A stretch of DNA of 63,989 nucleotides, the filler included, from Catajapyx aquilonaris (Eukaryota), in assembly GCA_000934665.2 (NCBI GenBank). It is 3 parts of 3 records of this genome, joined end to end, with 100 filler letters (N's around TTAATTAATTAA, not from the genome) between each part and the next. Parts side by side here need not be neighbours in the genome. Positions count along the whole stretch, not along the records: positions 43,423 to 63,989 come from JYFJ02006232.1; 2 more parts are not named here. One strand, given 5' to 3'. Positions 41,601 to 63,504 of this stretch are shown here, piece after piece. The position numbers and the translations under genes are program-made. Below the pieces are notes generated by a model. The model did no database searches. It was not told the DNA's origin and saw nothing but the letters and a program-made list of their open reading frames with translations. Each line of letters begins with the position of its first letter. Positions within the stretch are counted from its first letter, which is position 1.

Positions 41601-42579
41601 CCATAGCCTCAGTGCCGCCCATTAATTATTGTGGCATACTCTAGAATAAAACTTGGGAACATTGGCACCCGCCTACACGCCTGTCCTACCCCAGGTCCTG
41701 CGTCTATACTGTGGCCTAGATACAGACTTAATAACGTCTGGAGCACTGCACGTGTGGGGACCCAATCAATGCCCCATCACAACGGATCCGGAAGCTCAAG
41801 TTCTCTCTCCCAACTTTGCCAGCCCTATACATGGCCCTCCAATCAGGCTTAATATAAAAAGAAGGAACTCCCTCCCCGTCTACTGCAATGTACACCATCT
41901 GGACCTGTCCCCTGGCGTTGAAAGCCGATGACTTTCTTTTTCATTCATCTTGATCAATTTTGCATCAAGCCTGGTCTCCCCCCACCCTCCCTCAAGGCGT
42001 CAGAAATTAGGAGCAAAGTTGGGCCCCGCCAAAAGAGTCCTTTATGCACAAAAGGTGGGGTCCTCATTTTCGTGACAGTTTTGACGGTGGCGTCGATGGC
42101 ACGCGTTTTGTCGCGGATGACAAGTGTGACCAAATCCAACAACCGTGTCAGGCCACGTTGTCTGAACTCCTCAGTAAATCTATTCTGGGGTCTAAAACCC
42201 TGAGGTACTGGAAAGAGGTCAAATGGAATATCCTCCAGTACATTCCTTCCCAATATAGCAGCCCACCCTCGTTGAAACAATGGGGCGTGGTGCACAGAAA
42301 GGGAAACTGAGGTCCAGTGTCATCCACAGTTTAATCTGCTGGCATTGTCACTCACCAGGTAGCATTCCAATTGTACAAATATTTTTGTAGTCTGAGTGTT
42401 TATGTTGTGTAACTCCTGGAGAGGGTTTGCGTTGAAGAGAAGACATGTACTCACCTACGCTCAATGACGTCTGCATTTTCTCGGAAAGCAACTTCATTGC
42501 GGGTCTCGTACGGTGGAGGCGGCGTAGCGCACAGATCGTTCAGCATAAAATCCAGGTCCGTTGCTAGGCTATTCAGCAG
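22533..42579 (-). CDS. spri: Protein sprint / RIN-family Ras-and-Rab interactor (SH2 + proline-rich + RH; VPS9 and RA exons lie beyond the contig end), partial
   Basis: Phase-consistent exons 42579-42455 (LLNSLATDLDFMLNDLC), 31575-31362, 27699-27529 (ERLIRTHPIWYLPGIQRAGAVHLLQGKEEG), 27449-27265 (NFIVRQSSQPNTMAISVRLP..HYLI..FDNIPSLIAHYC, SH2), 25407-25316 (DELPVQLTLP..LSSYALLGQ), 25255-22856 (EFWGYP..) and 22801-22533 (FAQNVDNFIQCTRES..VMRNVRQFMSGMKNYLV). These motifs are characteristic of RIN1-3/sprint. Confidence 0.92.
22856..25255 (-). CDS. spri: sprint/RIN large 2.4-kb Pro/Ser/Thr-rich exon
   Basis: 808-aa ORF 22839..25265; tttcag|AG acceptor and T|gtaagt donor; contains PPPPPPRW, SDYEDIW, SPFYAEPAD and WTVDSSWEF motifs. 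Confidence 0.92.
25316..25407 (-). CDS. spri: sprint/RIN exon (end of SH2, DELPVQLTLP..ALLGQ)
   Basis: ctgcag acceptor and G|gtagga donor; phase 2 in and phase 1 out, matching neighbours. Confidence 0.88.
26316..26703 (+). mobile_element. tRNA-derived SINE, family 1, with (AAAT)n/(AAT)n tail
   Basis: A and B boxes (tggctgagacg, ggttcgaaccc); body homologous to 6294 and 28211. Confidence 0.8.
27265..27699 (-). CDS. spri: Two sprint/RIN SH2-domain exons (27699-27529 and 27449-27265)
   Basis: ORFs 27481..27825 and 27213..27464; canonical splice sites; SH2 FIVRQS motif. Confidence 0.92.
28211..28570 (+). mobile_element. tRNA-derived SINE, family 1, with target-site duplication
   Basis: A and B boxes, AAAAT tail, 13-bp TSD aattatatttaaa at 28197 and 28571. 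Confidence 0.85.
28583..29225. mobile_element. TTAA-flanked non-autonomous DNA transposon (Kolobok-like)
   Basis: TIR gtcattttgcatgttgagctccaaagatca / tgatctttggagctcaacatgcaaaatgac; TTAA on both sides; residual minus-strand ORF 28805..29074. Confidence 0.65.
29950..30020 (-). pseudogene. tRNA-like sequence (probable pseudogene; Gln-CTG-like loop out of register)
   Basis: GCCCCTG/CAGGGGC acceptor stem, GTTT/AAAC D stem, CTGGG-TTCGATT-CCTAG T arm; anticodon stem mismatched. Confidence 0.5.
31362..31575 (-). CDS. spri: sprint N-terminal exon (RGDVFLEPYMQ..GEGSLTQ)
   Basis: ttttcttccttgcag acceptor (phase 2) and CAG|gtacta donor (phase 0); joins the 42455 and 27699 exons in frame. Confidence 0.75.
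42455..42579 (-). CDS. spri: sprint N-terminal exon (LLNSLATDLDFMLNDLCATPPPPYETRNEVAFRENADVIERR)
   Basis: ttacag acceptor and AG|gtgagt donor; its phase-2 end joins the 31575 exon. A possible tiny start exon MQNV lies at 43049-43038 (uncertain). Confidence 0.72.
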
Positions 42580-43322
42580 CTGTAATCCAACAAAAAAGGT
42601 AAGACATTAGTCACAAAGTGGGTGAAGATACGTCAAGATTTCCATGCCTTTTCCCCCCCAAAACTCGCACGTCATTCCTGCCTCAATTACCGAAATCGAC
42701 CCTCCCTGCTCATCAAATAAATTACGGGCCTTTGGAGCTAAAATTGCGTTTACTCAGCCTGCTGAGTAACAAGCTGCTGCGTTCATTACCGGAGACGTAA
42801 CTACCCCGACGGACCTGTGATCGCTAGCGCTTTCCATTTTATAACAGGATGAAGAGTCATTCACAGAGGCGAGCACCTGCTGCTGCCATGGGGGGGCCTA
42901 CCCTGGGGCCTACAAATTTCAGGCCCATGCCACTTCATTTCCTGTCCATCACTGCGATTCGGCTCAAACTGCTATGGACAGACTCTCCACACCAAGCAGA
43001 CGCCGCGCCGTGTTTACTAATATTGGTCCGGTATTACCACATTTTGCATTTTGATATACCTTTCTGGTCAGTCCGGACGAAAAGCGTGACTGGAAAGTAA
43101 TTTCAATCTTCACATGCGATAATCTGATCGTGCATACATCAAAACAACAATAAATTAGTGTAAACATTCCCTGTCGACTCGATCATGAGACGTGTGACCT
43201 TCCAAGTGCGCTTACAATTATTATTCAACTTTCGATCGCCTAGAAATAACATCAGACATTGAAATGTCCGCTTTTTTCCTCACCACACCTTCCGCCAATC
43301 ACACACATGGGGGACCGGGGGG

Positions 43323-43422: not shown

Positions 43423-43494
43423 CGTGGCCACTTTCCGCGAGTTTTTGAGCACCCTGTATAATAATAAGTTTTGATGATGACGATGAAATATGGA

Positions 43495-43749
43495 AGGGTA
43501 ATGTTCCCAAGGGAGGCCGGTTCTGACGAGTTACAGCAAGTTATAGAGTCAGGATGAGCTAAAGATCCAGACCTTTTCTCACATTTTCTTCTGGCCCTGG
43601 GCAGAGAAGGGAGTGCGAATCTGCCCGGACACGTCGGGTGAAAAGAAGAAAAAGACCCGACCAACAGGAAGGTGACGGGGACGGGATCTGAACCCCGGAC
43701 CTCCCTCTTGGCTGGCCAACGGCATAGCCACTGCACCACCGTGTCCCCC
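43495..43749 (-). mobile_element. tRNA-derived SINE, family 2
   Basis: Minus strand reads gggggacacggtggtgcagtggc..gggttcagatccc; paralogs at 51899 and 18680. Confidence 0.8.
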
Positions 43750-43904
43750 ATAATGTTTCAACTTACAATGCACCAATCAAAACATGATATACTTGAAACA
43801 GTAAAAACTGTTACTCTTTTGCCATTTCATAAACTTATTTTAATGGGCTTGTCCATAACGAGGGACTGACAATCCAGTCCTACCCATTGACATCTTCTGA
43901 TCGC

Positions 43905-46287
43905 CAGGGTCTTATCCTCTCAGGGTGGAAAGAAGCCTCAGGAGCAACTTATCCTGGCAACTTTTGCTTTTTTATAGTATATGAAATTATTATGTAATTT
44001 TTTTGCATAATACCAGAAATATGCGCTTTTAAACCACTCCACCGGACAAAGGTGCTGCCCTGCGTGTCCTCGACTACATCGCACATGGCGTTGCCAAATA
44101 TGGAAGGATAGTCGATGATATGTGTCTGGTTTAAGTGACTGAGTGACCCAGACTATAATTTTCCAACGTTTAGTTAAAGATTATAGCACTTACAGGATAC
44201 CTTCAGATGCGACAAGAAATTCTTTGCCATGAGCGTGAACTTTGCTGTATTTGATTGCCCTACTGGAGGAAGCAGGTGCCATTACAAAAATTTAAAGTAG
44301 TATTGAGAAGGAGTTCACTCTATGGGATAGTCACAGTTGCCGCAATTGTAATTACCGTGAACCTCTTTGGCTATCGGAGTGCTGCAGAAAGATCTCAATC
44401 ACAGTCATATATCCAAAGAAAGCTCTTGGATATCTTCATCCAGAGGTTCGGACCAGATGGAGAATCTTTAGTGACAGGTCAAGTTATTTAATGCACCTTT
44501 CTATGGTCCTAGTAGTGGCCATCATCGCCCTCAATATTCTCGAGTCATTCAGAGGGATCAGGAAAGGTGTTGGGAGAATTGCATGCATGGTCTTTTATAG
44601 AAGTGTTAATCCTGGATCACTCTCTCCGTTCTCAAGAAATGAACACGAGTTGGTCATCCTCTGTTACGGACACTTTGAATTTGATTTAACATGTGAAGTG
44701 ACAGTTTGCAGTGTCCAGCATAAGTTCTCATGAAGACTTACCAGCCAATCAACGTCATGACTAAAACGAAAGGACCCCTTCGGATGTAATGCAATGTGGT
44801 ATTACGATGATCAAGATAGTGGAAGGTGCTAAGCTTCGGCAGGTGGAAATGATATCTAAATAGATACCGAAACAAAATGAGACAAGGTGCTATATTTTGG
44901 GTTTAACCAAGGCTGCCGGGAAGAAGGCGAAGGAAGAATTAAGAGAATAAGTATCAATCAATGATCATTACAAAATATGGATGGGAGTGTAGGTTATGGT
45001 TCTCCATGTCACATTGGGAAATCTCATTACTTATTGTAATAAGAAAGCTCGATAAATTGGATAACAGATAAGGTGAAGGATCTCTATTTGTGAAAACCCG
45101 AATTCAGACGCTTCACCTCACTTGTTATCGCATTTATCTTGCTTTCTTTTTACAATAAGCAAGACGGTCTCTCAATGCAGACAGATAGTACCATGACCTT
45201 CAATCTCACCATTTTATAATGACCATTCATCGACCCTTTTCTCTCATAGTTGTTCCTTCGCCTTTTGCCTGGTAACGCTGGTGAAACCCAAAAGCTAGCA
45301 CATTGTCTCATAGTTTCGGTATTGATTTTGAATTCATCTCTACATGTCGATGCTTAGCCCCTTTCACTTTCTTGATCATGTTAATACCGTACGACATTGC
45401 TTTGCATCAGAATGAATCATGTCGCTGGAGGCATGGCTGATTGCCTGGTAAGAGTTAATGAAAATTGAGGCTCGATGTTTCCAACTGTCACTTACCTCAT
45501 GTTAAATCAAATTCAAAGGATCCGGGTCAGAGGATGACACCCATGTGCATTTATTGAGATTGGGGAGCGTGATTCAGGAATCCCACTTCCGGAAAAGACC
45601 ATGTATGCCAATCTACCTTCATCTTCCCTGATCCTTATGATTCGCTCGAGGATATTGAGAGAAATGAAGGCCATCACTGGGTCTGTACAATGGTGCATTA
45701 CATAACTTGCAATATCACTGGAGATTCTCCAGCTGGATCGAAGAACTGAAGGAGGAGATCCTAGATCTTCCTTTGCGTATATGTGACAAGGATCCCTTTG
45801 CAGCATCAGATTTCTAAGGTGGTTCATGATAATTATTTACAATGATGGCAACTCTTACTATCCAATAGAGTGAACTCATTCTCAGTACTGACTTTAATTG
45901 TTTGTAATGTCAGCCGCTTCTTCCTACAGGGAAATCACTGACAGCAGGGCTCACAGTCATGGTAGAGAAGTTCCTGTTGCATATTATTATGAACGTGTCC
46001 GATATGTGCTACTCTAATCCTCTAAATGTTCGCCGATCCTAGTCACTCAAAAACTTGAAATAATATCTTTCGATGTCATTTGGATTCTCCACATATGATG
46101 CATATGCATTGTCAAGAAAACGAAGGGCTGCCTCTTAGTCGAACGAGGAAGCATACTCTCGAGGTGCACATTATGGTTTCCAATGAGATAAAAATGTTGG
46201 CGAGACACCCTCATCTATCGTTCCGTAGAATTTGCTAAGATGAGTTGTGTCTGAGACCTCATTCGGCTTGAGAGGGTGGCACCCAAT
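43905..46287 (+). ncRNA. Candidate long hairpin RNA (hpRNA) gene, copy A: ~1.2-kb imperfect arms, loop ~45084-45105
   Basis: 43905-45083 is the diverged reverse complement of 45106-46287 (e.g. ttattgtaataagaaagc / gctttctttttacaataa). No TIR/TSD or ORF; compensatory changes relative to copy B. Confidence 0.6.
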
Positions 46288-49200
46288 ACCTGCTGATTTA
46301 CCTATTTTCCTGACCTTTCATAACGAAATCCAGATTTACTAAGTTCATGGTACCGGTACGTAATATATTATTCCTACCGTTAGACTCTAAATGGTCAGTT
46401 AAAAGGTTGAATCAACCGGAAATAAATGCACTCTGTAAACAACATTTGTGCCTTACAGCCTAACCATTTCGAATTTCAAAAATGTACTTTTGATTCATTT
46501 TCACTACCCGGCAAAAGTTTGACAATTTTTCTGAGTCATTGGCGAGTGGACTAACCTAATTCGAGTGTGCCAAAAATTGCCTTACTTAACTTTGATTATT
46601 TATTTGCAAAATATTTATCCCACATTATGCAATATATGTGATTTTCTGTATCTTCTCAACACCTTGGAGTAATTTGAATGAGATTAAGCATGGTGCGTCA
46701 AAACCATTGCAGGGTAGTTACTGAACATACAATAAAATAATGTGTTACAAGAAGCACAACAAACGTAGGAAACTCTCTGGTCAATGGGTGTCGTAGAGAG
46801 TCATTTATCTGGTCACATTTTGACAAACCGGCTGTAGAAGTTCTGGTCTTCAATTACTCTGCCACTGAAGCAATTTCTTGATCCATTATTTCTGACGAAG
46901 CTGTTGCTGGAAGAGGTGATCCACCAGGATGCTAAGATGTGTCCATCAGGAGCTGACGGTCACAACGCAGGGATATAAGTCATACTCATGACCTGAAAGT
47001 TAGGATCACCAATTAGAATATTGTAATGTGCTAATACTCGTCTTGACTGCGATGGATTTGGTCATCTCTTGTATTTAACGCTACAGCATGAGTCGGAATT
47101 GAAGGTCTATCTGAATGTAGCCAAAACAATATGACATTTTCATATTTATCCTGAGCCTTAGAAGTAATCAACATTTACACAATTCACTCAAGTTTTGAGA
47201 ATCGGACTTTTTCAATTCCACATTAGAACAGAAAACTGACATACGATACCTTTTTATTTTGCATCATCACGTGACACCAAAGTAAAATTGTTGCCATGTC
47301 AGGATGAAGGCTTTTAGTGGATATCCATCATCAGAAGAACCAAAAAGAGTCTTCTTATGCATCGGTGGCATACACCAAACCGCACCAAACTATGGCCATT
47401 CAGTGTAGACTATATGGTCCTTCTCAGTGTTTCCAAAGCAGATGGAACTCTTCAGCTACCCGGTAGTAACTACGTCAATCTTCAACTACGTCCGGGTCAA
47501 GGTGGCTGTTACTGCGGGCGTACTCGGCATATCTGGCTGTGAATACACAATTACAATAGGTTTCATACCATTCATCATACAGAATTTATTAACCAAATGC
47601 AGACCTGATTATTTTATGCCTGACATTATCTAAGTGCATTATTCTTATTATCCGAATAATAAATTTAAATGACTTCACATTGTTGCCAATACTCATCAAG
47701 ACACAATAACAATGGCAATGAAGGTGACGTCACGTGTAACTTCAAAAGCCGAAATGTCAGGTAATTAAATGAATAAAGAGAAGAGCGTTCATGAATTTAA
47801 TTATAACCACGAGCAGTGAATATAATAATTATATATCTGGCTGTTGCCTCCTTGAACTGGTTAGGGCCTACTGGGTTCAGACAGTCCACGACTTCATCAC
47901 CTTCTCCTCTTGATTTGTGGGCATGGCATCGTAGCCCTCTCTGATTAATGTCACTTAATAATATATGTATCAGGTTCGAGGTTGTGGACTTGACCCAACA
48001 TCCTTTATGACAGGGTGGGTTGCCTCAGACTGTCACGATTCCCTTATCGCGGCCATAAAAGTGTTTTCTCCAGGTACACCAGTGTCCCCAGTGTCGCGTT
48101 ACCACAATGAAAGTGAAGGAGAGACCGTGGGAGAGACAGATTTTCCTCCTTCTCATGACATGTGACGCAATGATTTGGCTATTAATCTTTATCAAATTCT
48201 ATCCCCTTCAAAACTTAGGCGTACGAGGCGTCGCACAGTGGTTCAAAACGAGAAAAAGGAGCGAAAAAAAAAATCGATTTTTGACTATTTAGTATGAACT
48301 TGCAAACTGCGCACAAGAAAGTGCATCATGTGAGGTACATGTGGTACTACTTGTTTGTTCAATCTGGTTCAATCCTTATTGCATGATAAATACCACATGC
48401 CCCGAAAATAATGAAAAAATCGGAAAATTGCTTTTTTTTCGTCCTGGTCATTTTTCCTTCCCCATATTGTCGTTCATTACAGCTAGTTATAAAGACGAAT
48501 TAAGAAATGTCCAGCATACAGTTTTGTTCAGTGCTTCGTGAAGAATAATAATATGGATGTGATGTCGATTTAATCTTTACCTATAATTCCTTAAAAATAT
48601 TTTAAAAGTGCACCCGAAGGAGCGCATTAATTTTAGCAATTTTTCATAAACATGCTGCGTAATACGGAGTAATTACGAAGAATTGATGGAATTGCTCTTA
48701 TGTGCTCTCGTGTGTGGGTGAAGTAAAAAGTTTTCCCCCGACTTATGCTAATTTCGGATCCTTAACTAAGTAAAATTAGGCACAGGTGAGAATTAAAACA
48801 TAGAACACCTGAGGAAGACATTTTATTTTTACTCATGGTGCGCAGGAAGAAGCCTATGATATAGACTTACTGTAGCAGTATGATTACGTGTGTGCGTGTG
48901 GTGATTTTAGGAGAAACTTCTGGCACACCCTGTGTACAGAACCTTACCAATTACCTCCCTATGTGCAATTCATCGACCTCCGCAGAAATTGAGGATTTTC
49001 GAACCAGTGTAGTGTAACAAATAACAATCGAAGCCCTTTTGGCAAAAAGGGCACATGTCACTCTTTTGGAATATTCGAGTTATCATCACTAAATGGCAGG
49101 GGGGATTGTTTCTGAGGTCCTGAGAAAAGTGTACATCAAAAGGGGCATTTGTCACAGCTGAAAATGGGGTTTGAAGATTGAGGAAATCATCCGACCCTGG

Positions 49201-49362
49201 AATACTGTATATCACGTTATGGGCCATATGAGCTGATCTCTGACTTCCATGTTGCCGTCCACAGGTCCACTATACCAAGACTATATACACAACTGCATGG
49301 TGCCAGCAGGTGTCTACTATATACTGGTATCATCGATCACAATACACATCATCTACTAAGTA

Positions 49363-49513
49363 AGTACTATGGGGCTCAAATTCTTTTGCCCACTTTATCC
49401 TGGTCTTGAAAAAACCCTTCGCACAGGCCCCATGGTGAGCAGGTATATGTGTGTGTGAAGGGTTGCTTCAAGATCAGGATAAAGTGGCCAAAACAATTTG
49501 AGCCCCATAGTAC
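49363..49513. mobile_element. Palindromic MITE inserted in unit A only
   Basis: gtactatggggctcaaatt ... aatttgagccccatagtac; absent from unit B. Confidence 0.75.
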
Positions 49514-51898
49514 CTACAGTACAGTCTCGGCATATGAATTTGAGTGCTGAGATCCCTCCCATTTTACTCGAAACACCAAGTCGCCATTATTATCTATTGA
49601 AAGCCATTGCTTCGTCAGTGACTTTGCTGTCCTGGTTGAAAAGCCATGATGATATCAAATGCCTAATTCTCCAAATGTAACTGGCCATTCACAACTAACG
49701 ACGTTATATTTAGGTGCCTATCACTAAATTACAGTTGGCTGTTAAGAGTTACATACCAATAATTAAAAGACTGGATAAGCCGTACATAGATGTGCAGACC
49801 TAAAGTGGACTTCTATATGATGGGATGGCTTGGCCCTAGCGCGCGGCGGTGGGGGGGGGGGGGNAGTACGATTGCCATGAAATTAATGTTTATTTTCGCC
49901 GTTAATTACCAATAAGAACCTATATACAAAAATTACGAGTTTCCAACTATGCTAAAGCGATGCGGTGCACCTATGACTTATCAGTAGGCCTAGGCCTAAA
50001 TGACAGCAGAGGAATTGGCGAAAAAAAAAACCTTAGCGGGGCCCCTAAATTTTGTGGGCCCTAAGCACCTGCCCCGTGTGCACCCCGCCCCCACGCCCCG
50101 ATAGGAGGGGCCCCTCGCTTGACGTGGCTCCGGGCCCCGCGACCCGTACGCGCCGTCACTGGATCCTAGTCCTATCCTAGACATTCGCACCTGCCAATGC
50201 TGCCATCCGTAGGACTAGAACTATGCCACCACCGTCCCAGTGTTGCCCATTTGTAGACACTTCAACAGGACAACACCCCTCCCTGACTTGGAGACATTTA
50301 GGCGTAGGCCTACTCACCTCCATCAACGGTGGATATCTCTCTCCTGGTTGTGAGGCCTGTTTGACTGTCCCTCGTCTCTTCCCAACAGATGAATCTTCTG
50401 AACGGTTGGTGGTCGACACTAAGGCCTGGTCACTCCGCCACACCCTCGTTCTTCTGCCTCAGGAACATGGCCACCGGTTGTATCACCAATGATGCCCAGA
50501 ATGAGTATGACGTGTTTCATCATGGCGGATCTCCACTAGTCCTCGTCATGTCGAGGAGCAGTCTACAGCTCCTCCCACACTTCACTGGTCCAATCTCCAT
50601 CGACTTGCGCAGTAGAGAAAGAATCTTCTGGAGAACATGACTCATTCCAAGAACTCCTAGCTACGTGTCCTCTCCTTCCTGTGTACACTATGCTGTCCCT
50701 CACATTCTTTGGCCATTCTTCCTCAGCTAGTTATGTCCCATTGTTTAGCATCATTGGTGTATCTTGCTAATATTGTCAGATGATGGCTTGTTTTTCTCGC
50801 AATCCTGATGATCAAATGTTATGCTTTGTTCTTTGTCTCCAAGAATATTGTTGGGATTCCTTACACTATTGTGCACTCTGAATTAATCAGTCTAATGTGC
50901 TGTATAATGAACCTGCCTATGACTAACAAGTGAGTGACCCTGATTTTAGAATGTAGCGATTTGCAAGGGGGTAACTACTCCCCAAAAATGTGTAGGGGAG
51001 ACCGGTGCACAGTGGTCCTTTCCACGTCATACTGTATGCAATGGAAGCTACGATTCATAACATCATAATTATCAGTTGCTGCCCTCTGGGGCACAGTAGT
51101 CCATGAACCAGTGTGCACCTTCTTGTGGACGACCCTTTTGCCTCTGCACAGCACGTAATGTCATTGATGTTCCCATATTTTCACCCTATACAGTTAAGAC
51201 TTTGTTTTGGGCCAATCCAGCCACCGTGTTCCGTGCGACATGAAGATCTGACTCACCTTGTATCCACCTCTTCCGTATCAGTAATTTCCGACGGGTGACA
51301 ATATTTCTCTAGGATAATGACCTCCTCCGTCCTGGACCACTCTTTTCCTGGAAGTTACTGCCAACTTATCTACACTTCGGACGAACTTGAGCAGTTCGGA
51401 CTACCATTTACATAGTGCAGATTGAATAACGTTGAAAAAGGTGTTACATCTTTTGGGAAATGTTGACTCTTTCTCCCCATTTTTATCGGGTTACTTTTTG
51501 GTGAATTCCACGAGAGTGTGAAATATTGAGTACACGATGGTCTGAAACTTTCCATGGGTTTGTAGAGCTTCTAAAACAAAATCACATAATTGATTGACAA
51601 TGAGTTTTATTTATTTAAATTCATGGATCAGGATAGATAAATACATGGTATATTTCGGAATGCAGGCAACAAATGCCAAGTAGCATGATAGAGTAGGTTA
51701 CAGATGGTAAATAGCAAATGACACATAAACTTACATATTATTATAAAATGAGTTGTTTACATATTATTACTTAAATGTATGTCGTAGTCTAGTTTACATC
51801 TTATTTACTTGTAAAACGGAATGTCTGGGAACATCCCTGCTAATCTTTTAATATAATAATAAGATTAATAACCTTTAATGATGGTGGTGGTGACATAA

Positions 51899-52137
51899 GG
51901 AAGGGGGAATGTTCCCAAGGGAGGGCGCTTCTGAAGTGTTCTAGAGTAAGGATGAGCTAAAGACCCAGACCTTTTCTTCTGGCCCTGGGCAGAGAAGGGA
52001 GTGCGAATCTGCCCGGACACGTCGGGTGAAAATCGAAAAAATACCCGACCAAGAGGAAGGTGACGGGGACGGGATCAGAACCCAGTACCTCCCTCTTGGC
52101 TGGCCAGCGGCATAGCCACTATACCACCGTGTCCCCC
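51899..52137 (-). mobile_element. tRNA-derived SINE, family 2 (duplicated with the segment)
   Basis: Close copy of 43495-43749 with the same downstream flank. Confidence 0.8.
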
Positions 52138-52399
52138 ATAATGTTACCAATACAATGCATCACAATGCACCAATCAAAACATGACATTCATGAAACAGTT
52201 AAAAACTGTTATTCGATTGTTATTTCATAAACTCATTTTAAATTTAATACACTTGTCCATAACCTGGGACTGACAATCTGGTCCTGCCCGTTGACATATT
52301 CTGATCGTCAGTGTCTCATCCTCTCATGGCGGAATAAAGCCTCCGGCGCAACTTCTCCTGGCAACTTGTGATACTTATGGAAACTTATTGGATATGGAA

Positions 52400-54140
52400 T
52401 GATATGTGTCTGGTAAGTGACTGAGTGACTCGGACTATACTTTTCCAACGTTTAGATGAAAAGTGTAGCACGTAAAGGACACCTCCAGATGGAGCAAGAA
52501 CTTCTCAGGCATCATTGTGAACTCTGATGTGAATGATTTACCTACTAGAGGAAGGTGTTGACAATACAAAAAGTTAATGTAAATATTGAGACGGAGTTCA
52601 CTCTATTGGATAGTCACAGTTGCCACCACAGTAAATACCGTGAACCTCTTTGGCTATCTGAGTGCTACAGAAAGGTCCTTATTGCAGTCATATACCCAAC
52701 GGAAGCTCTTGGATCGCTTCATCCAGAGGTTCGACTTGGCAGGAGAATCTCTAGCAACAGAGCAAGTTATGTAATGCACTTTCTACAGTCCTAATGGTAG
52801 CCCATCATTGCCCTCAATGTTCTCGAGTCATTCAGAGAGAGCAAGAAAGATAATAGAATAATGGAATGCGTGGTCTTTTCTGGAAGAGAAGAGTCTTGGC
52901 TCACTCTCTCCAGTCTCAATAAATGCGTATGGGTTGGTCAGCCTCTGCTACGGACACTGAATTGATTTTAACATGCGAAAGTGACAGTTTGCAGTGTCCA
53001 GCCGCAGTTTTCACGAAACCTTTCCGACCAATCAAACGTCATGACTAAAGCGAAAAGAGACACCTGCTGATGTAATGCAATGTCGTATTACTATGATCAA
53101 GATAGTGGAAGTTGCTAAGCTTCGACAGGTCGATATGATATCTAAATCGATACCAAACAATGGGATAATGTGCGATCTTTTGGGTTTCACTCATGTTTCC
53201 AGGAAGAGGTGAAGGAAGATTACATGAAAGAAGAATCGATAAATGATCATTACAAAATGTATGGGAGTGTAGGTTGTGGCTCTCCATTTATAATGACCGT
53301 TTATCAACCATTCTAATGTTCCTTCGCCACACACCTGGAGACGTGGGTGAATCCCAAAAGCTAGCACATTGTCTCATTGTTTTGGTATTGATTTTGAATC
53401 CACATCTACCTGTCGATGCTTAGCCCCTTTCACTTTCTTGATCATGTGAATAGCGTACGACATTGCTTTGCATCAGATGGGTCTTTTCGCTGGAGCCATG
53501 GCTGATTGCCCGGTAAGGGTTCGTGACAACTGAGGCTGGACACTGCAAACTGTCACTTTCCTCATGGTACATCAATTTCCAGTGATCCGAGACAGAGGAT
53601 GACACATCCATGTGCATTTATTGAGATTGGGGAGCGTGATTCAGAACTCACCTTTCCAGAACAGACGACGCGTTCCATGCTTCCTTCACTTTACCTGATC
53701 TCTATGATTCACTCGAGAATTTTGAGAGCAATGAAGGCCATCACTGGGTCTGTACAATGGTGCTTTACATAACCCGCAATGTCACTGGAGATTCTCCAGC
53801 TGGATCGAAGCACCGGAGGAAGATCTCCAAGATCCTCCGTTGGGTACAATTATGTGACAAGAATTACTCTGCAGCATCAAATTTCCAAAGCGGTTCCTGA
53901 TATTTGAAATGCTGGCAACTCTGACGATCCTACAGAGTGATCTCATTGCTTCTCAATACTGACATGAACAATTTTGCAAAGGCAACAGCTTCTTCCTGCT
54001 GGGAAATCACTAACAGCAGGGTTCACAGTCATGCTAGAGACGTTCTTGCAGATGGACGTGTCCGGTACATGCTACTCTAACCCTCTAAATGTTCGTCGAT
54101 CCTAATCACACAATACCTTGAATCATAGAAAATAATATCT
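52400..54140 (+). ncRNA. Candidate long hairpin RNA gene, copy B (apical ~200 nt deleted, centre ~53270)
   Basis: Paralog of copy A; arms complementary (e.g. aaagtgacagtttgcagtgtccagcc at ~52978 / ggctggacactgcaaactgtcacttt at ~53534). Confidence 0.58.
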
Positions 54141-57100
54141 TGCAAAGTTATTTGGATTCTCTCGAGGAAATGAAGAGCGAGACACCCTCAGGTGAAGCTG
54201 AGGGTGTCTCGCCCAACATTCCTTAGAAACAGGTAATTGAATGGGCACTTACATTGTACATGATGATATCTACATATGCTACTACTAGCTGCAACATTAA
54301 ATTTAGTGTCGCCTCTGCCGTTTTTATAAACAAACCTAAAGAATCGATAGCTAATTCGCTGTAATTAAATTAACAATTATCTCAAACTTTTGGCACTGAT
54401 GGGAACCTTCATTACATCACATTTTCATAAATGTATGAATGAATTAGTTGGAAGTTTGTTATACAGTACAGTGTAGGCCCTACAGTGAGATTGCACTTGA
54501 CACCATTTGCACTAGCATAATTTTATTTATAAGAAATTTTATTAAGAAATACAGGCTGGTTTCTCCAACTATTTACCTGACCTTTCATAACTAAATCCAG
54601 ATTTACTAAGTTTGTGGTATATATGTAATTACTCATACAATTAGTCCTTAATGGTCAGTTAAACGGTTGAACAAACCGCAAATTATTGTGCCTTACAGCC
54701 TAACCATTTCGAAAATGTACTGTACTTTGTTTCATTTTCACTCCTTGAGATCGATTACACTACCCTACAAAAGTTTAAATATTTTCAACAGTATTGATGA
54801 GATCAACCAAACCAAACCTAAATCGAGTGTGCCTGAAATTCTATTATTTCACATTGATTATAATTATCTGAAAATATTTATGCCAACACTAACACCAGAT
54901 ATGATTTTCTGCTTTTTCTCAAATTTTTGAAGTAATATAGGCCTATTATTTGGATTATTAGGAAAATTGTAATCTATTCAGCAATTTTCATGAAATGTAA
55001 GCTAATTGTATAGCAAGTTATAGTGATCAAATTATCACATTAACATTTCCGGAAAACAGTAAGTGATAGGGAAAATGGAGAGCAGATTATTATGAAACTA
55101 GCACACTCCACCCGTTAAATCGCCGCTTTCAGGATAGTGTTACTGAACGGCGTACTAATGTATTACAAAGAAGCACAACTAACTTATCAAAATCTCCAGG
55201 AATTACGACAGTGGATGTCGAAGAGAGTCATTTATGTGGGTCCTGGCCTTCAATGTCTCTTCCACGGAAGCACCCTCTTGATCCATTATTTCTGCCAAAT
55301 CTGTTGCTGAGAATGATGGTCCACCAAGTTGCTGTCCATCCGCAGCTAACAGTCACACCCCAAGGATGTAAGACGTACTCATGACCTGAAAGTCAGGGTC
55401 GCCAATTAGCATGCTTGCATAGTAGGATTACAATTCCCTAACCCTTTGTAGCGTGACAAGCCAACCTCAATAATAAGTTATCAAAATGACAACTTTTAAA
55501 AACCTATTATTTCAATATTCCACATTAGCACAAAATAACTGCGACATACCTTATTATCTCGCATCACGGCATGACACCAAATTATGTTGCCCATCAGGAC
55601 GCGGCCAAAGTGGAAATCCATCATCAGGAGACCCAAAAAGCGTCCTCTTCAGCATGCAGCAGTAGCCTATACACCAAACTATGGCCACTCAAAGTGTCTG
55701 TGGTCCTTCTGGGTGTTGCCAAAGCAGATAGGGCTCCTCAGCAACCAGGATGTCAAGTCAATCTTCAACTACCCACATCAGGATAAAGATGAATCTTAGT
55801 GCAGGCGTGTCACTCTGCATATTTGGCTCTGGAAAAAACCCACAATTCCTATAACTTTCATTCCAATCATCATTCAGACAATCCACAACTTCATCACCTT
55901 CTCTTCTTTATTTGGGGGCATTGCGTCATAGTCCTCTCTGATTTTGGAATACAGTTATGTAATGTCACGAAATTAATGTGTATGACCAGGTTCGAGGATG
56001 TGGACTTGACCCAAGACTTGATCCAACATCCTTTATGACAGGGTGGGTTGCCTCAGACTGTCACGATTCCCTTATCGCGGCCATAAAAGTGTTTTCTCCA
56101 GACACCAGTGTCGCGTTACCATGAAAGTGAAGGAGAGACCGTGGGAGAGACAGATTTTCCTCCTTCCCATGACATCATCAGACGCAATGCTTGGTAGCTA
56201 TTAATATTCACCGAATTTTATCCGGGGGCCTTCAAAAATTACACGTAGCGCTTAACTGTTTTTTTCCCTGGTCTAGTTTGATTTATTGGTAAACGAAAAT
56301 AAAGCCATTAGATTGTGGACACAGCTCGAGGAGAAGCTCGAGGACCCCGCGAAAAATGCTCGAGAAAAGTAGTTAACTCTACCCAACTCTACCCATGGAG
56401 AAAATCCTCGAACCTTGGGATATAACTCATGATCTGGGTTGATCTCGACCTCCATGTTGCCTCCCTCACAACTGCGTGATACCAATGTAGGTGTCCACTA
56501 TACTGGTACTAGCTATCTGCACTCCTCTAGTCTCGGCGTAAGAATTTGGCTCGGAATTTAGGTACCGGTACTAACGTCCTTGCCTATATAATTGCTTAGT
56601 TGCCATTATACTTGCGGCTGTTGTGACGTCACTTCTTTGGTTCAGGATAACGATATTATCATATGAATATTTCTCCAAACTTTTAACCGACAGTTCACAG
56701 TTCACTGAATTTTAGGTGCCTCACGCATAAACTATAGCTTAATGCACATTTGGCTGGAACCTGTGCATACCTAAAGTGAACACGAGTGAACCACGAACTT
56801 CTATGGGATGGCCCTAGTCCTAGACCTTCGCACCTGCCATCCGTGGGACTAGGAGTAGGGCATTTGCTACGACCGTCCGAGGGAACCCCATTTGCACAAC
56901 CCTAACTACCAACTGGACAACACCCCCTCCCTGGCCTCACTGTAGACGTTTACTCACCACCATCAATGGCGGATGTCCCTCTCCTGGTTGTGAGGCCCGG
57001 TCTGATGAAGTCTAGTCTCTTCCCAACAGGTGTTGAATCTTCTGCACTGTTGGTGGTAGGTCTATAGCCACTAGGCCTGGTCAGTCTGCTGCCACACCCT

Positions 57101-57657
57101 CTTTCTTCCGCCTCAGGACCACTTGCCACCGGCTGTATCACCACTGACGACCAGAATGAGTTTGGCGTGTTTCATCATGGCGGATCTTCGCTAGTCCTCG
57201 TCATGTCGAAGAGCAGTCTATAGCTCCTCCCACACTTTCATGGTCCAATCTCCATCGACTTGCGCAGTAGAGGAAGAATCTTCTGGAGAACATGACTCAT
57301 TCCAATTCCCACTTGTCATTTCCTTCCTGTTGATAGTACTTATTTTTATAGTTGGTACAAGAACTCGTCTAAACTATTTTACTATTTTACCCTCATTTGT
57401 CATAGTAACATATTCTTCCCTTCAGTCAAAATAATGCACTTGAGAGTTTATGCTCCCTAGCCAACTCGCCTTAGTTTTAGTTAGAAGTAGTGGTCATCCA
57501 GCCATAATCATCAAGAATTTGCATGATGCAACTACACATATTGAACACTCCGTGCATATTATGAAATGAAAGGGATATTGCGAAGTCCGACCTTGCATGA
57601 TTTTCATTCTGAGTCGTATTCAGGACGTGTAAATTTGAAGTGTTAACAATTTATAGT

Positions 57658-57682: not shown

Positions 57683-57844
57683 ATAATATATGACTGGGGC
57701 AATAAGCTTTGGCTCATGACGTAAGCACCTGATATTACTAATATTATACATGCGCATGGCAAGGCACACTTCATTGGGGAATATATTTTGTCGACTATTT
57801 CATTTCATAGTTTCTTGTGCCCTGGAGAAAATCAGTCTGATAAT

Positions 57845-58669
57845 ATGGCTCTGCTCAATGCAACCATCACTCTTTCCATTCTTCTAGTGAGAAATTACGT
57901 AGTATTACTAACAATAGTTTTTTAGTAGAAATAGCCGAATACTGTTCGTAACAATATCTCTAATACTTTGATTATTATTTTTCACTCATTTCTTAGATGT
58001 GCTCCTTGTGTAATGGCTGTGATCTGCCCACGAAGGATAATCGCCTCATGTCTGACATCATGGAATGCGCCAAATCGAACACCAAATTTGTGAGTATTGA
58101 ACATTGTGAAAACCCTTCGGAAAATGTAACTAACTGTGTGATACTGACTATTGTCTTCTTGCCTCACTAGTGTATTTTGAAGTGCGCATGTGAGAAGACG
58201 GGAGTGGTAAGAGCAGATGAAACTCATTTCTTATAGAAACACATTCTAGAGGTTTGTCGTGTATAGTATTTCTCCCATGATTTGTAGGTGACATCTCAGG
58301 GTGCAATAGACAAAGATGGAGTAGACAAACTCTTTGGAGAAATTCCGGAAGGGGAATTCAAAGAAGCATTCGCGGTTACAAAAGATAAGTGCTTCAAACA
58401 GGGTGAGTGATGCAAGTTAATTATGTGTATATTAGTGTTGATGATGTTAGTTAGTACATAATCTTAAAATTGAATTCCAGGCAAGACATACAATATGAAT
58501 GACGCTCAGTGTGTGTCATTTGCAACACTTGGATCTTGCATTATTAAGCAACTGGATAAGGTATGCTTCTGGTATGCTTGACGCTGACTGATTCACAACC
58601 AGTTATATTCTCTTCCTTTTATTGCAGAAATGTCCCGATGTGGCAACAATCGTAAGAAGTAACTTGTAG
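57845..58669 (+). CDS. Odorant-binding-protein-like secreted protein (PBP/GOBP fold, Plus-C-like), paralog 1, 135 aa
   Basis: Exons 57845-57886, 57997-58089, 58171-58206, 58288-58402, 58481-58560 and 58628-58669, all GT-AG. They give MALLNATITLSILLMCSLCNGCDLPTKDNRLMSDIMECAKSNTKFCILKCACEKTGVVTSQGAIDKDGVDKLFGEIPEGEFKEAFAVTKDKCFKQGKTYNMNDAQCVSFATLGSCIIKQLDKKCPDVATIVRSNL*: signal peptide and C-X3-C-X41-C-X13-C-X8-C-X8-CP. Confidence 0.85.
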
Positions 58670-59974
58670 AATATTTGTAATGTAGTAATCAACCTGCTCA
58701 GTCGATAGGACTAAGAACACCCATTATGGCTTTACATATACTATGACGCACATTGTAGCACTGCAGCAAGAAACTCTTGATTTTACTAACGTGAAAGTAT
58801 TAAAATGGATCTAAAACATTTTTCATTCCATTGTGATATGTAAATTAAATGACTTATATAATTAGCGCAGAACGATATATTATATTGGTGAATATATTAA
58901 TCCTCTTCTTGCCAATTAATCACCTGCTAGATCTGTATGGATAAACCACTAAAGAGACCCGAATGAAAATTTATCATCACAATGCAATGTAATAAGACAA
59001 CTAGTCTTAATATGCACACAGACTAAATCCTTCCAGTTCCCACACACAATCGTGACATGTAATATTGTGTATTCCAAATAAAACAACTTTCAAAGCAAGA
59101 CATTTTGCAATTAATGTGTCGCGACTGATGCTATCAGAAATAATTATGCAATAACCCCCTTATGTAAGTTTGCAATTAAAATTTTATAGTCATACAGTTT
59201 AATAATAAAACTTAAAAAATGACAAATGCAGCACCGTGCTTCTTTGGTCCTTTTTTCTATTGTCAAAAATGTGAATGTCATTTTGACACTTTCTGTTTTT
59301 TGATTTTTTTGGTTTAATGAATCAAAAGGACTGAAACACTTATATATCGTCGCCAATATGCAAATAGGCGAATTCAACATTTTCATAATTGTTCAGGAGA
59401 GCAAAAAAAAACAAAAAAAAACCTGCAAACTGCTCTAGAAAAAAGAATGCTACGTAAAATCTTGAAAATTGGAAATTGTGCACAAAATATACTTCCCATG
59501 CTCATGTGGAATATTGTATTAAGCATGTACTGTGCATGTAACAATGACACTTTGCGAATTCGCCCTTTTCGCAGCTTTTGCTTGGACTAAGTGATTGTTG
59601 CAAAAAGGACGTATACCGGTATACGGTATTGAACTCCCAGGTTTTTCCAACACTTCTACTCAGCATAATGACTACTGCGTGCACTGGCTCTATCAGATGA
59701 AAAAGAAGAGAAGTTACAACGTCCGCCCTGCTTCCTCTGGTGTTCGTGCTTCAGGATGCTCATTTGATAAGTGAAGACCCTTTTATGCAAAGGTGGGGCA
59801 CATCCTTAGCTGGCTGCTTATGACCAAAGTTATAAAAGAAATCCACATATTTATGATGCATGCACAAACATTGCATGACAGGGCAGCAGGGTTCAGTGCG
59901 GGATATGTTGGGTCGATTTTATTTCTAAGGTATTCTACCGTATACATAACCTGGAGGAAAGAACTGTTGCAACT

Positions 59975-60815
59975 ATGGTCTTACTCAGTAGAACTATCAA
60001 AAACTGCTTGCTTTCTCTTCTTGTGGTGAGACATTTTGTCGTATTACTAATAATGACTTTTTTGCAGCTGTGACTAATATTCCGAACACTGACGTATCTC
60101 ACGCATTTTTCAGATATGTTCTTTAAGTAAAGGGTGTGAAGTTCCTCCGAAGGATACTCTCCTCATATCTGCCATAGTTGAATGCGCCAAATCCAACTCC
60201 AAGTTTGTAAGTATTGAACAAGAAAGTTTAGAACACATTTCTCAGAGACGTAACTCAATCATGTTTGTTGTTACCATATTGTGTTTCTCAGTTATTGTGA
60301 CATCGATGTGACATTAAACATTGTTTTCTTACTTACTAGTGCATTGTGAAGTGCGTTGCTGGAAAGACGGGCATAGTAAGCGCTTAATTGATACATAGAT
60401 CCATTTGAGGAGCTTGAAATGTCTCGTGATTCGTAGGTGACATCTCAGGGCACAATAGACGAAGAGAAAGCAGCAGAGGTCTTCGAAGACTTGCCGGAAG
60501 GGGAATTTAAAGATGCACTCAAGATTGTTAATAAGAAATGCATCAGACCAGGTGAGTGCTGATAGTTGAGGAGTTTTATGTGTCAAATATTCAGTGTAAA
60601 GAAAAACGTCGAAATGTAATAATAATTTCAGGGATAAAGCACAATATGAAGGACAAGGATTGCGTGTCATTTGCACAATTTGGAGCATGTTTGATTAAGC
60701 AAATGGATAAGGTAAAATGCATGACTTGATACTCACTGATTTACAGCTTATTTTATGCGCTATTTTATTGCAGAGATGCCCCAATGTGGCACAAATCATA
60801 AGAAACAACATGTAG
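59975..60815 (+). CDS. Odorant-binding-protein-like secreted protein, paralog 2
   Basis: Exons 59975-60025, 60114-60206, 60340-60375, 60437-60551, 60632-60711 and 60774-60815; same internal exon sizes (93/36/115/80/42) and cysteine spacing as paralog 1; frame intact. Confidence 0.85.
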
Positions 60816-61692
60816 AATATTTGTAACCTGGTCACTTGGTAGGACTAATAACACCCATTATTGTTTTACTTATTATGAAGCACGTTCTATCAATGCAGAA
60901 AGAAAATGTCAATTTTCCTACCTAGCACTTGTTTCAATCATTGTTTACTCTATTTTGATTTTAAAGCACAGGTTATTATTAGAGCACAAAGCTTACTTAG
61001 GTTAAATGGATGCAATTATTTATAATTACAAAAAGTCTTCCTGAGGGTCAACCATCTGTCTGTTACTTGTATGAATATAACCATAAACATTGTTGTGTGA
61101 CTAAAAATCTTTGTTGATTTATATAAGTCGTCACATGTAATATCGTGTATCCCAAATAAAATAATTCAGCCAAAGTTTGCGATTACCTGTACTCTGATCT
61201 TTATTATCATTAGTTTGCGAGTGACATGCATATGTAACACCAACATTGAAGTAAGCAAGAGACTTACTGTACAAGTTAGTGTCATTCCCTTCGTCAAAAC
61301 GAGGTGTTAAATACTGCCCGGTTCCGGCCATAAACACGAAAGTAAACGTGTTTGTGTGAGCCAACCACGCATTGTGACCACTCCGAGCACTGATGCAGAC
61401 CGATGAAAAGGAAAAGGGATGTTGCGAAGTCAGGCCTGGCATGATTGTCGTTCTAACAAGTAAGCCACGTTCAGGAAGTGTGAATTTGAAAAGTGTCAAC
61501 ATTTTATGGCAGGGCGGTGCATCCTCAACTGGCCATATATTACCCCCAAAAAATAAAAGAAGTTCTGCATGCATCTGACATATATGGCATGACAGGAAAG
61601 AGTGGGGAATATTATTTTTGTCCCACTTCATTTTTATATAACACTAGATAGAGAAAAGAAGACCTGACACCACGGTCCTGTAAAGTGTAACT

Positions 61693-62600
61693 ATGAAGTA
61701 CTGCATGATTTTACTTCTTGCGGTGAGAAATTATGTAGAGTTAATCATAATGGCAATTAGCTGTTGCCGGATTATGCTACTACTGTTTGTAACAAAATGA
61801 CAAACACTTTGATTTTTTTACACTCAATTCTCAGGTGTGTACCGTGAGTAATGGCTGTGATCTGCCCCCGAAGGATAATACCCTAATATCTTCAATCATG
61901 GAATGCTCCAAATCGAAGACCAAATTTGTGAGTATTAAAATTGTTTAACACACATTCTTCAGATGCTTAATGATTGTTGTTATTCATTAGTGGATAGTTA
62001 TGACCAGTGACTCGAACCGCACAACTGCTTGGGAACTATTGTGATATACTGAATGTTTTCTTAACTTCTAGTGCATCGTGAAGTGCGTTGCTGAAGAGAC
62101 AGGCATAGTAAGATCACATCACATGTTTATTACGCCTAATTAATATACGGGCACATTTTAGAAGTTCGATATTTATTTCTTCCATGATTTGTAGGTGACA
62201 TCACAGGGTGCAATAGACAAAGATGCATTAGGAAAGCTCGTTGGAGAACTTCCGGAAGGAGAGTTTAAATCTGCAATCGAGATTATTGATAATAAATGCT
62301 TCAAAAAGGGTGAGTGCTGTTAGTTTATGCTGTGCAAAGTTAATAGCCTTTGTTTGTAAAGTGTTTTCGTTAAAAAAAATCCATAATGAAAACTTAAAAA
62401 TTAAATTTCAGGGAAGACATACAATATGAATGACAAAGAGTGTGTGCAATTTGCATCAATTGGAGCTTGTGTTATCAAGAAACTGGATACGGTAACATGC
62501 ATGCTTTGACACTAACTAATTCATATAGCCTAACTCTATTCTCTTCTTTTTATTGCAGACATGCCCCAATTTGGCGCAAATCATGAAAAATAACATGTAG
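61693..62600 (+). CDS. Odorant-binding-protein-like secreted protein, paralog 3
   Basis: Exons 61693-61722 (MKYCMILLLA|gtgaga), 61835-61927, 62072-62107, 62195-62309, 62412-62491 and 62559-62600; identical architecture; frame intact. Confidence 0.85.
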
Positions 62601-63504
62601 GATATGGAAATGTCTATAGAAACCAACGCTTCGTATTAATCAGACTTAGTTACTTTATAAGACTATGATACCCTCCGTGCCCAGTAGATGGAGCTGGTTG
62701 TGTGAGTTGGTCAAGAGATGGCGTGGATCTGGATGGAGGACAGGGAGGGATGAGGCTTTGTGTTGTAGCAGCTCGTGAGAAGGCCTTGTGCGAGGCTATA
62801 TCGTCTAATAAACCGTTTCTGGGTGACCCTTGCTTTTGCCCCATTACTATAGAGTCTATTTATTAGTGATTAGTGCACCAGTTCGCTCAGAGTTAACTTC
62901 TCTTGCAGGATACATTTCTTGCCAAACAACTCAAGTTATCAGAGTAACACATATCACCAGGTGATAAGATAAATGACGAGAAGAATTTATTTTCGCGCAT
63001 TTCATCCATCTGAAGGATACATCATTACTGCTGGTGAGAACCCTCGTGAAGAAATTCCCTATAAAATTCATTTACTTTATTTTTTTTATTTTAGTTATTT
63101 TTAAACCGATAAAAATAATCGCCGCTACGCGCGAACACCCTCCCCCCCTCCGGAAAAGGCTTTGCGACCCCCAGGTTGGGGAACTACTCCTGTAATAGAC
63201 CCAGTAAAATCTTTGAAGAAAATGTTGTGTGCCAACTGCCAATAAGGGACAATAATTGTCAGAAACAGACACAGTGATGGCATCTGTTTCAGTGACAGCA
63301 CCGTGACAGTATGGCCCTTTAAAATATTGTCATCGTTATTCTGATATTTTTAACAGTGAGAAAAATGATCTGAAAAATGAGGTATGCATTGTGGACTTAA
63401 ATATGTCTGTGTCTGTGTATCTTCAATTATTTTTTGTAGGGATTTTTTCTAAGTCAACAATGATTGTCTGTAACTCTGTATTGTTACCTTTGTTGGTAGG
63501 AACT

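Follow-up and report, generated by a model that had tools for sequence, protein, structure and literature searches.

Matched double substitutions without protected pairing in a duplicated long palindrome of Catajapyx aquilonaris

Many long inverted repeats have been proposed to be hairpin-RNA genes, and double substitutions that match between the arms are treated as the best evidence for a functional RNA that can be read from sequence. Kilobase inverted duplications are also known from primate sex chromosomes, where the arms of the palindromes are kept nearly identical by tract gene conversion. In Drosophila, hairpin RNA (hpRNA) loci occur in tandem clusters, for which hp-CG4068 and the hp-tHMG cluster of D. 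simulans were described (PMC10317233). The loci treated in that account are defined by Dicer-2-dependent siRNAs, by a primary transcript with raised levels in dcr-2 mutants and by arms that are homologous to a target gene. At the level of DNA, template switching in imperfect inverted repeats was proposed in two reports to yield compensatory substitutions and to maintain an apparent structure without selection (PMC5453318; PMC8794818). According to a further report, short spacers favour the formation of hairpins or cruciforms, and breaks at the centre lead to the revision of palindromes, a process called 'center-break palindrome revision' (PMC3300023).

Here we analysed a duplicated palindrome of Catajapyx aquilonaris (assembly GCA_000934665.2). 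The window, i.e. the whole stretch of DNA under analysis, comprises 63,989 nt and joins three parts of three records, which need not be neighbours in the genome; positions 43,423 to 63,989, which include both copies of the palindrome, come from JYFJ02006232.1. Relative to hairpin A (44132-46059), hairpin B (52414-54122) is a copy that has diverged to ~81-83% identity per arm (Table 1). The arms measure ~0.85-0.96 kb and a whole palindrome ~2 kb. Both hairpins are embedded in a tandem segmental duplication that also covers their flanks, with one long inverted repeat per duplication unit. In self-BLAST, the blocks 43472-43966, 44115-46089, 46285-48223 and 50171-50682 of unit A match unit B in colinear order at 68-81% identity. 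The alignment of A with B revealed that ~206 nt at the apex, still present in A (45014-45219), are missing in B, and following this loss the two copies differ in the length of the loop or spacer (12 nt in A versus ~31 nt in B). Self-BLAST also returned two younger inverted repeats elsewhere in the window, with an arm identity of 97%. Inverted duplication seems to be common in this genome.

Table 1 Coordinates of the palindromes, the duplication units and a sprint-like coding exon, counted along the whole window
Feature	Position	Strand	Basis
Unit A of the tandem segmental duplication (hairpin and flanks)	43472-50682		self-BLAST
Hairpin A, left arm	44132-45088		inverted repeats I2, I9, I12, I13, I20; four-way alignment
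Hairpin A, 12-nt spacer at the symmetry axis	45089-45100		inverted repeat I9 (arms 45012-45088 and 45101-45177, 12 nt in between)
Hairpin A, right arm	45101-46059		inverted repeats, self-BLAST, four-way alignment
Unit B of the tandem segmental duplication	51879-57330		self-BLAST; global A/B alignment
Hairpin B, left arm	~52414-53256		aligns ~81% to the left arm of A, 73% to the reverse complement of the right arm of B
Hairpin B, apical loop of ~31 nt	~53257-53287		A/B alignment gap and sequence
Hairpin B, right arm	~53288-54122		aligns ~83% to the right arm of A
Internal coding exon of the sprint-like gene, LLNSLATDLDFMLNDLC motif	42453-42585	-	tblastn of sprint proteins, lowest E 4e-7

Protein matches indicate animal DNA of arthropod type, with a sprint-like gene on the minus strand. 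The large exon of the sprint-like protein, whose relatives carry SH2, RA and VPS9 domains, corresponds to an ORF of 821 aa at 22839-25304 (182 matches, the best at 7e-79), and tblastn located further sprint exons on the same strand at 27639-27529, 27449-27267, 31592-31311 and 42585-42453. The last of these encodes the conserved N-terminal motif LLNSLATDLD, is preceded by a pyrimidine tract plus AG and followed by GTGAGT, and has no start codon; hence, the gene must have one or more additional exons to the right of it. A motif scan of 42.6-64 kb for exon 1 of sprint gave no match. The conserved block at 47961-48192 and 55976-56211 was rejected as a candidate first exon, because neither its frames nor its donor sites are conserved between the two copies. 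Since the hairpins are located upstream of the internal exon with respect to the minus strand of the gene, they probably sit in a 5' intron of this sprint-like Rab5-GEF signalling gene.

In its anatomy, the locus resembles a Drosophila hpRNA locus. Shared with the loci described in PMC10317233 are the long inverted repeat, the short loop, the neighbouring duplicates, the capacity to fold into a long hairpin and a position possibly inside another transcription unit. Of the features that define such loci, the inverted repeat is the one that could be shown here. If transcribed from either strand, each copy is predicted to fold into a single long hairpin, the extended hairpin that characterizes an hpRNA locus, with 659-762 arm-to-arm pairs over both copies and strands (659-672 on either strand of B). 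The minimum free energies of these folds range from −849 to −940 kcal/mol, compared with −474 kcal/mol (sd 6.6) for shuffles of B; this control consisted of six mononucleotide shuffles of the plus strand of B only. The longest uninterrupted helix in the predicted folds measures 21-29 bp, and the duplex is 73% Watson-Crick. In this respect the locus differs from the tHMG cluster, whose copies are described as near-perfectly complementary (PMC10317233), whereas the arms of A and B are 73% complementary and eroding.

A coding origin of the arms was considered and dropped. Substitutions in the arms showed no codon periodicity (P 0.65-0.87), every frame contained 9-25 stops, and none of the six arm ORFs matched a Pfam entry. 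No homolog was found for the 145-aa ORF in the left arm of A by a word-seeded search among proteins of 79-254 residues, nor for the 107-aa ORF in the right arm of A when all 1.84 billion representatives were scanned with phmmer. Among known RNAs, no Rfam family reached its gathering score on either hairpin. Over the region 43.4-57.4 kb, Rfam returned sub-threshold miRNA-like matches only and none of them on the arms; the nearest, at 54167-54222 just outside of B, scored 25 bits versus a gathering score of 150. Searches of the 64-kb window with blastn and tblastx revealed no further sequence resembling the arms, of the kind expected for a target.

Internal tandem repeats in the style of foldback elements are likewise absent from the arms. 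The word depth of the DNA contigs was 33-40 over both hairpins, the same as over the unique flanks, and these contigs cover the hairpins without a differing letter. Real repeats nearby reached depths of ~4,000-35,000, with ~35,000 for a MITE-like element at 49360-49517. These depths come from three runs of one sample and detect copies at a likeness of at least 90% only; at that likeness, a high-copy transposon of the foldback or MITE type is ruled out by the single-copy depth. No sequencing run recorded as RNA matched this stretch, and a run of unknown type (X5) yielded small low-depth contigs at 51886-52677 only, plus repeat pieces.

For the analysis of substitutions, the left arms of A and B (AL, BL) and the reverse complements of their right arms (AR, BR) were aligned, and 846 gap-free columns were scored. 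The alignment comprises two sequences per arm, and all counts are unpolarised with respect to the copy that changed. The columns include 497 that are invariant, 82 that are arm-specific (AL=BL differing from AR=BR) and 204 with a change in a single arm (AL 58, BL 51, AR 37, BR 58). Left arms resemble left arms and right arms resemble right arms, with identities of 0.81 for AL-BL and 0.83 for AR-BR versus 0.733 for AL-AR, 0.729 for BL-BR, 0.701 for AL-BR and 0.733 for BL-AR. A preliminary description of this DNA had stated this relationship and had concluded that the inversion predates the duplication, and the 82 arm-specific columns bear out that order of events.

The four-way alignment carries a built-in control, because on this tree independent evolution leads to equal expectations for two mirror patterns. 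The first is the copy-specific double change that keeps the pair (AL=AR differing from BL=BR), and the other is the cross pattern (AL=BR differing from BL=AR). We counted 13 columns of the former and 3 of the latter (binomial P=0.021 on 16 columns), corresponding to a D-type statistic of 0.625 with a block-jackknife Z of 3.1-4.9. The column counts were unchanged across five MAFFT settings. A neutral simulation built on the observed branch lengths and mutation spectrum gave a mean of 4.1 copy-specific columns, with P(>=13)=2.5e-4, while the 3 cross columns compare with 4.2 in the simulation. Pair-preserving double changes are therefore more numerous than the phylogeny predicts, as judged from unpolarised counts on only two sequences per arm. 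The excess is real and beyond chance, yet it is small, with 13 columns next to 204 single-arm changes.

Copy-specific paired changes of B relative to A had been the central observation of the preliminary description, and all four examples given there fall among the 13 columns: CAAAG/CAACG at 44417, 52700, 45772 and 53839, TACCG/TACCA at 44869, TCAT/TCAC at 44731 and, within the 10-mer GCATGCATGG/GAATGCGTGG, two double changes at 44582 and 44587. In this 10-mer, B also has a G:G mismatch that the earlier text omitted. The 13 columns are single, isolated and evenly spread along the arms, at 54-817 columns from the apex. A retained arm-specific mismatch lies 1-37 columns from each of them, and the mismatch-free intervals around them span 4-43 columns, with a mean of 21.8 versus a background of 17.1 (P=0.10). 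In neither copy does arm identity rise within 3, 5 or 10 columns of these sites. A GENECONV-like permutation scan returned a single marginal run (P=0.046), in which the A arms are identical at 8 polymorphic sites within alignment columns 611-627 and which contains none of the 13. Hence, no multi-base conversion tract was detected along the arms by interval, local-identity or GENECONV-like tests. Of the checks proposed in the preliminary description, the four-way alignment with a neutral simulation and the scan of the GENECONV type left its account of isolated double changes amid kept arm-specific mismatches intact. Neither tracts that erase such mismatches nor a count at the level of chance, the two outcomes that it had itself named as speaking against it, was found, and by its own measures the hypothesis survives.

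The further step from these changes to selection on an RNA duplex fared differently. Watson-Crick pairing is found at 510 columns in both copies, at 110 in A only and at 107 in B only, so that 217 columns are paired in one copy and not in the other. By parsimony, arm identity was ~87% at the time of the duplication, compared with 73% today. Since the duplication, changes have occurred at 0.317 of the columns then paired versus 0.305 of the columns already mismatched, the latter figure being corrected for changes that chance upon the base of the opposite arm. Mismatches of the G:U type show no strand bias, with ratios between plus-strand and minus-strand RNA of 56:44 in A and 48:51 in B. Thus neither of the marks of purifying selection on pairing, slower change at paired sites and strand-biased wobble, was seen. 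Transitions and transversions stand at 7:6 in the 13 double changes and at 105:99 in single changes; as compensation through G:U intermediates would favour transitions, their equal share speaks against selection on the duplex. From standard fixation probabilities, restoring changes become three times as fast at a scaled selection of ~2.8, which would cut disruptive substitutions about fivefold, and a slowing of this size was not observed in the arm columns.

An excess is also seen in double hits by which no pair is restored. In 12 columns, the A arms differ both from an agreeing B pair and from each other, compared with 3.6 simulated (P=2.5e-4), while the mirror class, with the B arms set against an agreeing A pair, holds 1 column and the two cross classes hold 5 and 4. 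Taken by column, 26 double hits fall within a copy versus 12 across copies (simulated 11.5 and 11.7, respectively). The share of within-copy double hits that restore a pair is 13 of 26, versus 36% expected from the mutation spectrum (P=0.10). The anomaly is where mutations fall, and not clearly whether pairing is restored. The inference in the preliminary description of 'selection on RNA duplex structure' is therefore not supported: paired columns were left unprotected, 217 columns have no pair in one of the copies, wobble lacks a strand bias, and hits that restore nothing are equally in excess. Nor is its claim of a functional, duplicated hairpin-RNA family supported, as the test for protected pairing came out negative.

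Several explanations of the excess have to be weighed. A duplicated family akin to hpRNA loci would have transcripts, perhaps as part of the sprint pre-mRNA or driven by a promoter of its own, the long dsRNA would be diced to siRNAs, and selection would keep the duplex. Such a family is suggested by the 13 pair-keeping double changes against 3 in the control and 4.1 expected, by their isolation among retained arm-specific mismatches, by the single long hairpin of low predicted energy on either strand and by the tandem hpRNA clusters described for Drosophila (PMC10317233). It also agrees with the indels between A and B: none of the 20 events in the arms reaches 10 nt, whereas 19 of the 53 flanking events do (P=9e-4); if the deletion at the apex is included, the arms have 1 of 21 (P=0.008). 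Together with an A-B identity that is higher in the arms (0.81-0.84) than in the 3' flank (0.68-0.78), the small size of these indels could indicate some constraint, and we counted it against the reading of a decaying palindrome. The 5' flank, at 0.86, is as conserved as the arms, and pairing is not singled out as the constrained property. What makes an hpRNA origin unlikely in our assessment is that change at paired columns is not slowed, nor are disruptive changes cut to the extent that selection behind a threefold excess would require. In addition, the duplex is imperfect, its uninterrupted helices are short, the wobble pairs show no strand preference, non-restoring hits share in the excess, and the window offers neither a target-like sequence nor protein homologs of the arm ORFs. 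We would not attribute the excess of double changes to selection for an RNA duplex, and the locus may well have no RNA function.

If selection on pairing is set aside, the matched changes could still have arisen by transfer of sequence between the arms or by parallel mutation without any contact between them. Classical arm-to-arm gene conversion in tracts after the duplication, as in sex-chromosome palindromes, would fit with within-copy distances that are smaller than the cross-copy ones by 24 site differences and with the marginal run in the A arms. It is largely refuted by the arm-specific mismatches kept close to every shared change, by the lack of raised arm identity nearby, by arms that are only 73% identical and by the absence of all 13 columns from that run, and we regard it as highly improbable. 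The locus shares with the primate palindromes the kilobase inverted duplication, the short spacer and some non-independent evolution of the arms, and differs from them in that its arms disagree at 27% of sites and show no tracts. Chance combined with shared hypermutable sites would instead invoke a common sequence context, possibly with copy-specific chromatin or methylation, that leads to parallel mutation. The window has a CpG observed/expected ratio of 0.63 and a TpG+CpA ratio of 1.20, 5 of the 13 columns have a CpG in one copy, the direct test gives only P=0.02 on 16 columns, and the enrichment extends to non-restoring hits, all of which this explanation would accommodate. Parallel decay should, however, fill the cross-copy classes equally, and these stayed at the simulated level (12 observed versus 11.7). 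CpG counts are moreover alike across the four arms (21, 24, 20 and 24), on which ground copy-specific CpG decay was rejected as the cause of the excess, and 8 of the 13 columns have no CpG. We therefore consider parallel mutation at such sites doubtful, without going so far as to call it improbable.

We favour, at a probability of about one half, a decaying palindrome with arms that are coupled at the level of DNA and that probably lie in the 5' intron of the sprint-like gene. The DNA palindrome, with arms of ~0.85-0.96 kb, goes back to an ancient inverted duplication that left hardly any spacer, and a tandem segmental duplication of ~8 kb later copied it along with its flanks. Both copies have since decayed at about the neutral rate of their neighbourhood, taking arm identity from ~87% down to the present value. 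Meanwhile, the arms may have paired as a DNA hairpin or cruciform, in which their mutations would have been coupled by repair or copying over very short stretches, a process akin to the correction of quasi-palindromes or to template switching. Of this account, the anatomy, the order of events, the substitution counts, the single-copy depth and the absence of tracts are observed, and the coupling mechanism is proposed. Tentatively, a germline hit in one arm may raise the chance of a hit at exactly the opposite base, up to 1.8 kb away, whether or not the pair is thereby restored. Such non-independent mutation of the arms would be the footprint of DNA hairpin or cruciform pairing in vivo and of mismatch-provoked repair in that structure.

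The closest parallels for a DNA-level coupling of the arms fit in part. By analogy, the loss of ~206 nt from B may represent the kind of change described for palindromes that are processed as DNA structures. It resembles center-break palindrome revision in that sequence around the axis was lost and the loop was widened, while the work in PMC3300023 dealt with repeats in cultured cells that were perfect or nearly so, and the deletion in B is ancient and deduced from the comparison of two copies only. With quasi-palindrome and template-switch mutation, as far as presented in PMC5453318, PMC8794818 and PMC3820800, the locus has in common arm-matching changes in imperfect inverted repeats and apparent compensation without selection. 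The events described in these sources are local, the stems ranging from a few bases to some tens, and several adjacent bases are often altered. Here, the coupled columns are single and isolated, they are spread from 54 to 817 columns away from the apex, and partners lie at distances of 0.1-1.8 kb, all of which counts against our own reading. A further difference is that no pair is restored by half of the coupled hits. Likewise, a change that raises complementarity, as expected from template switching, is found in the 13 columns and not in the other 12-13 coupled hits, and multi-base events were not seen. The lopsided non-restoring class, with 12 columns against 1, is predicted by no simple model.

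The value of this locus is mainly methodological; otherwise it is a long genomic palindrome, a known kind of element. An inversion followed by a duplication sets up a comparison of four taxa in which a control pattern comes built in, and thereby a clean natural test. In this test, a real 'compensatory' excess was found to coexist with the free erosion of pairing and with an equal excess of double hits that compensate nothing. Wherever covariation is counted in palindromes, coupling of the arms at the DNA level should therefore be controlled for. If the locus makes siRNAs, it would represent an old duplicated hpRNA pair outside of Drosophila. If the arms are coupled at the level of DNA, RNA covariation could be mimicked in any long inverted repeat.

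In the four-way alignment of the left and reverse-complemented right arms of hairpin A, the inverted repeat in unit A of the tandem segmental duplication, and of hairpin B, its diverged copy in unit B, non-compensating double hits, in which both arms of one copy are changed at the same column and the pair is not restored, are in excess and lopsided toward the A arms. There are 12 columns in which the B arms agree and the two A arms match neither B nor one another, versus 1 column of the reverse class, in which the A arms agree and the two B arms match neither A nor one another. Simulation gave an expectation of ~3.6-3.8 columns for each class.

Coordinates of alignment columns, repeats and exons in the window
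Feature	Position	Strand	Details
Example columns, A arms differing	44190, 44274, 44276, 44291, 44574, 44609, 44736, 44772, 44848, 44915, 44948, 44959		
High-copy repeat	43581-43757, 51969-52145, 18745-18831		word depth 4,000-5,400
Long inverted repeat	10658-11021 / 11228-11591		364-nt arms, 97% arm identity
Long inverted repeat	12752-13170 / 13411-13828		419-nt arms, 97% arm identity
sprint-like gene, large exon	25424-22530	-	821-aa ORF; 182 homologs, best 7e-79
sprint-like gene, SH2 exon	27639-27529	-	
sprint-like gene, SH2 exon	27449-27267	-	
sprint-like gene, additional exon	31592-31311	-	
sprint-like gene, internal exon	42585-42453	-	canonical splice sites

The first two listed copies of the high-copy repeat lie just upstream of hairpins A and B and are 93% alike, which exceeds the likeness of the surrounding duplication. 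Confined to unit A is a short hairpin at 49360-49517 (66-nt arms, 89% complementary), which looks like a very high-copy MITE, with a DNA word depth of ~35,000 versus ~35 in unique sequence; its Rfam match to MIR7127 is sub-threshold (53 bits; gathering score 100). The two long inverted repeats, with spacers of ~200-240 nt, are probably young transposon-related fold-backs, and 21113-21212 matches part of the first. Tandem repeats unrelated to the hairpins occupy 57940-62605 (about 1.7-1.9 kb, 67-82% identity).

One block shared by the units (47961-48192 and 55976-56211) is 93% identical between them, compared with ~80% or less in the remainder, and it retains CpGs and includes a 79-nt perfect run. 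It had no Rfam match, and neither reading frames nor donor sites are conserved between units A and B; the alternatives for this block are that it is a conserved element or that it was converted recently.

The minus strand of 22530-42585 carries the 5' half of a sprint-like gene (SH2/RA/VPS9, a RIN-type Rab5 GEF). No exons of the RA/VPS9 part were found in the window left of 22530. A tRNA gene is located within the region (29949-30020, minus strand; Rfam RF00005, 54.8 bits).

Small low-depth contigs from sequencing run X5, the library type of which is not on record, map to 51886-52677 and take in the outer ~280 nt of the hairpin B left arm. The last 97 nt of an 890-nt contig from the same run match 57886-57790, the rest being unlike the window. 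An acceptor-like ttctcactag|AAG stands at the edge of this match on the minus strand, which makes 57790-57886 a possible spliced exon, situated upstream of the hairpins.
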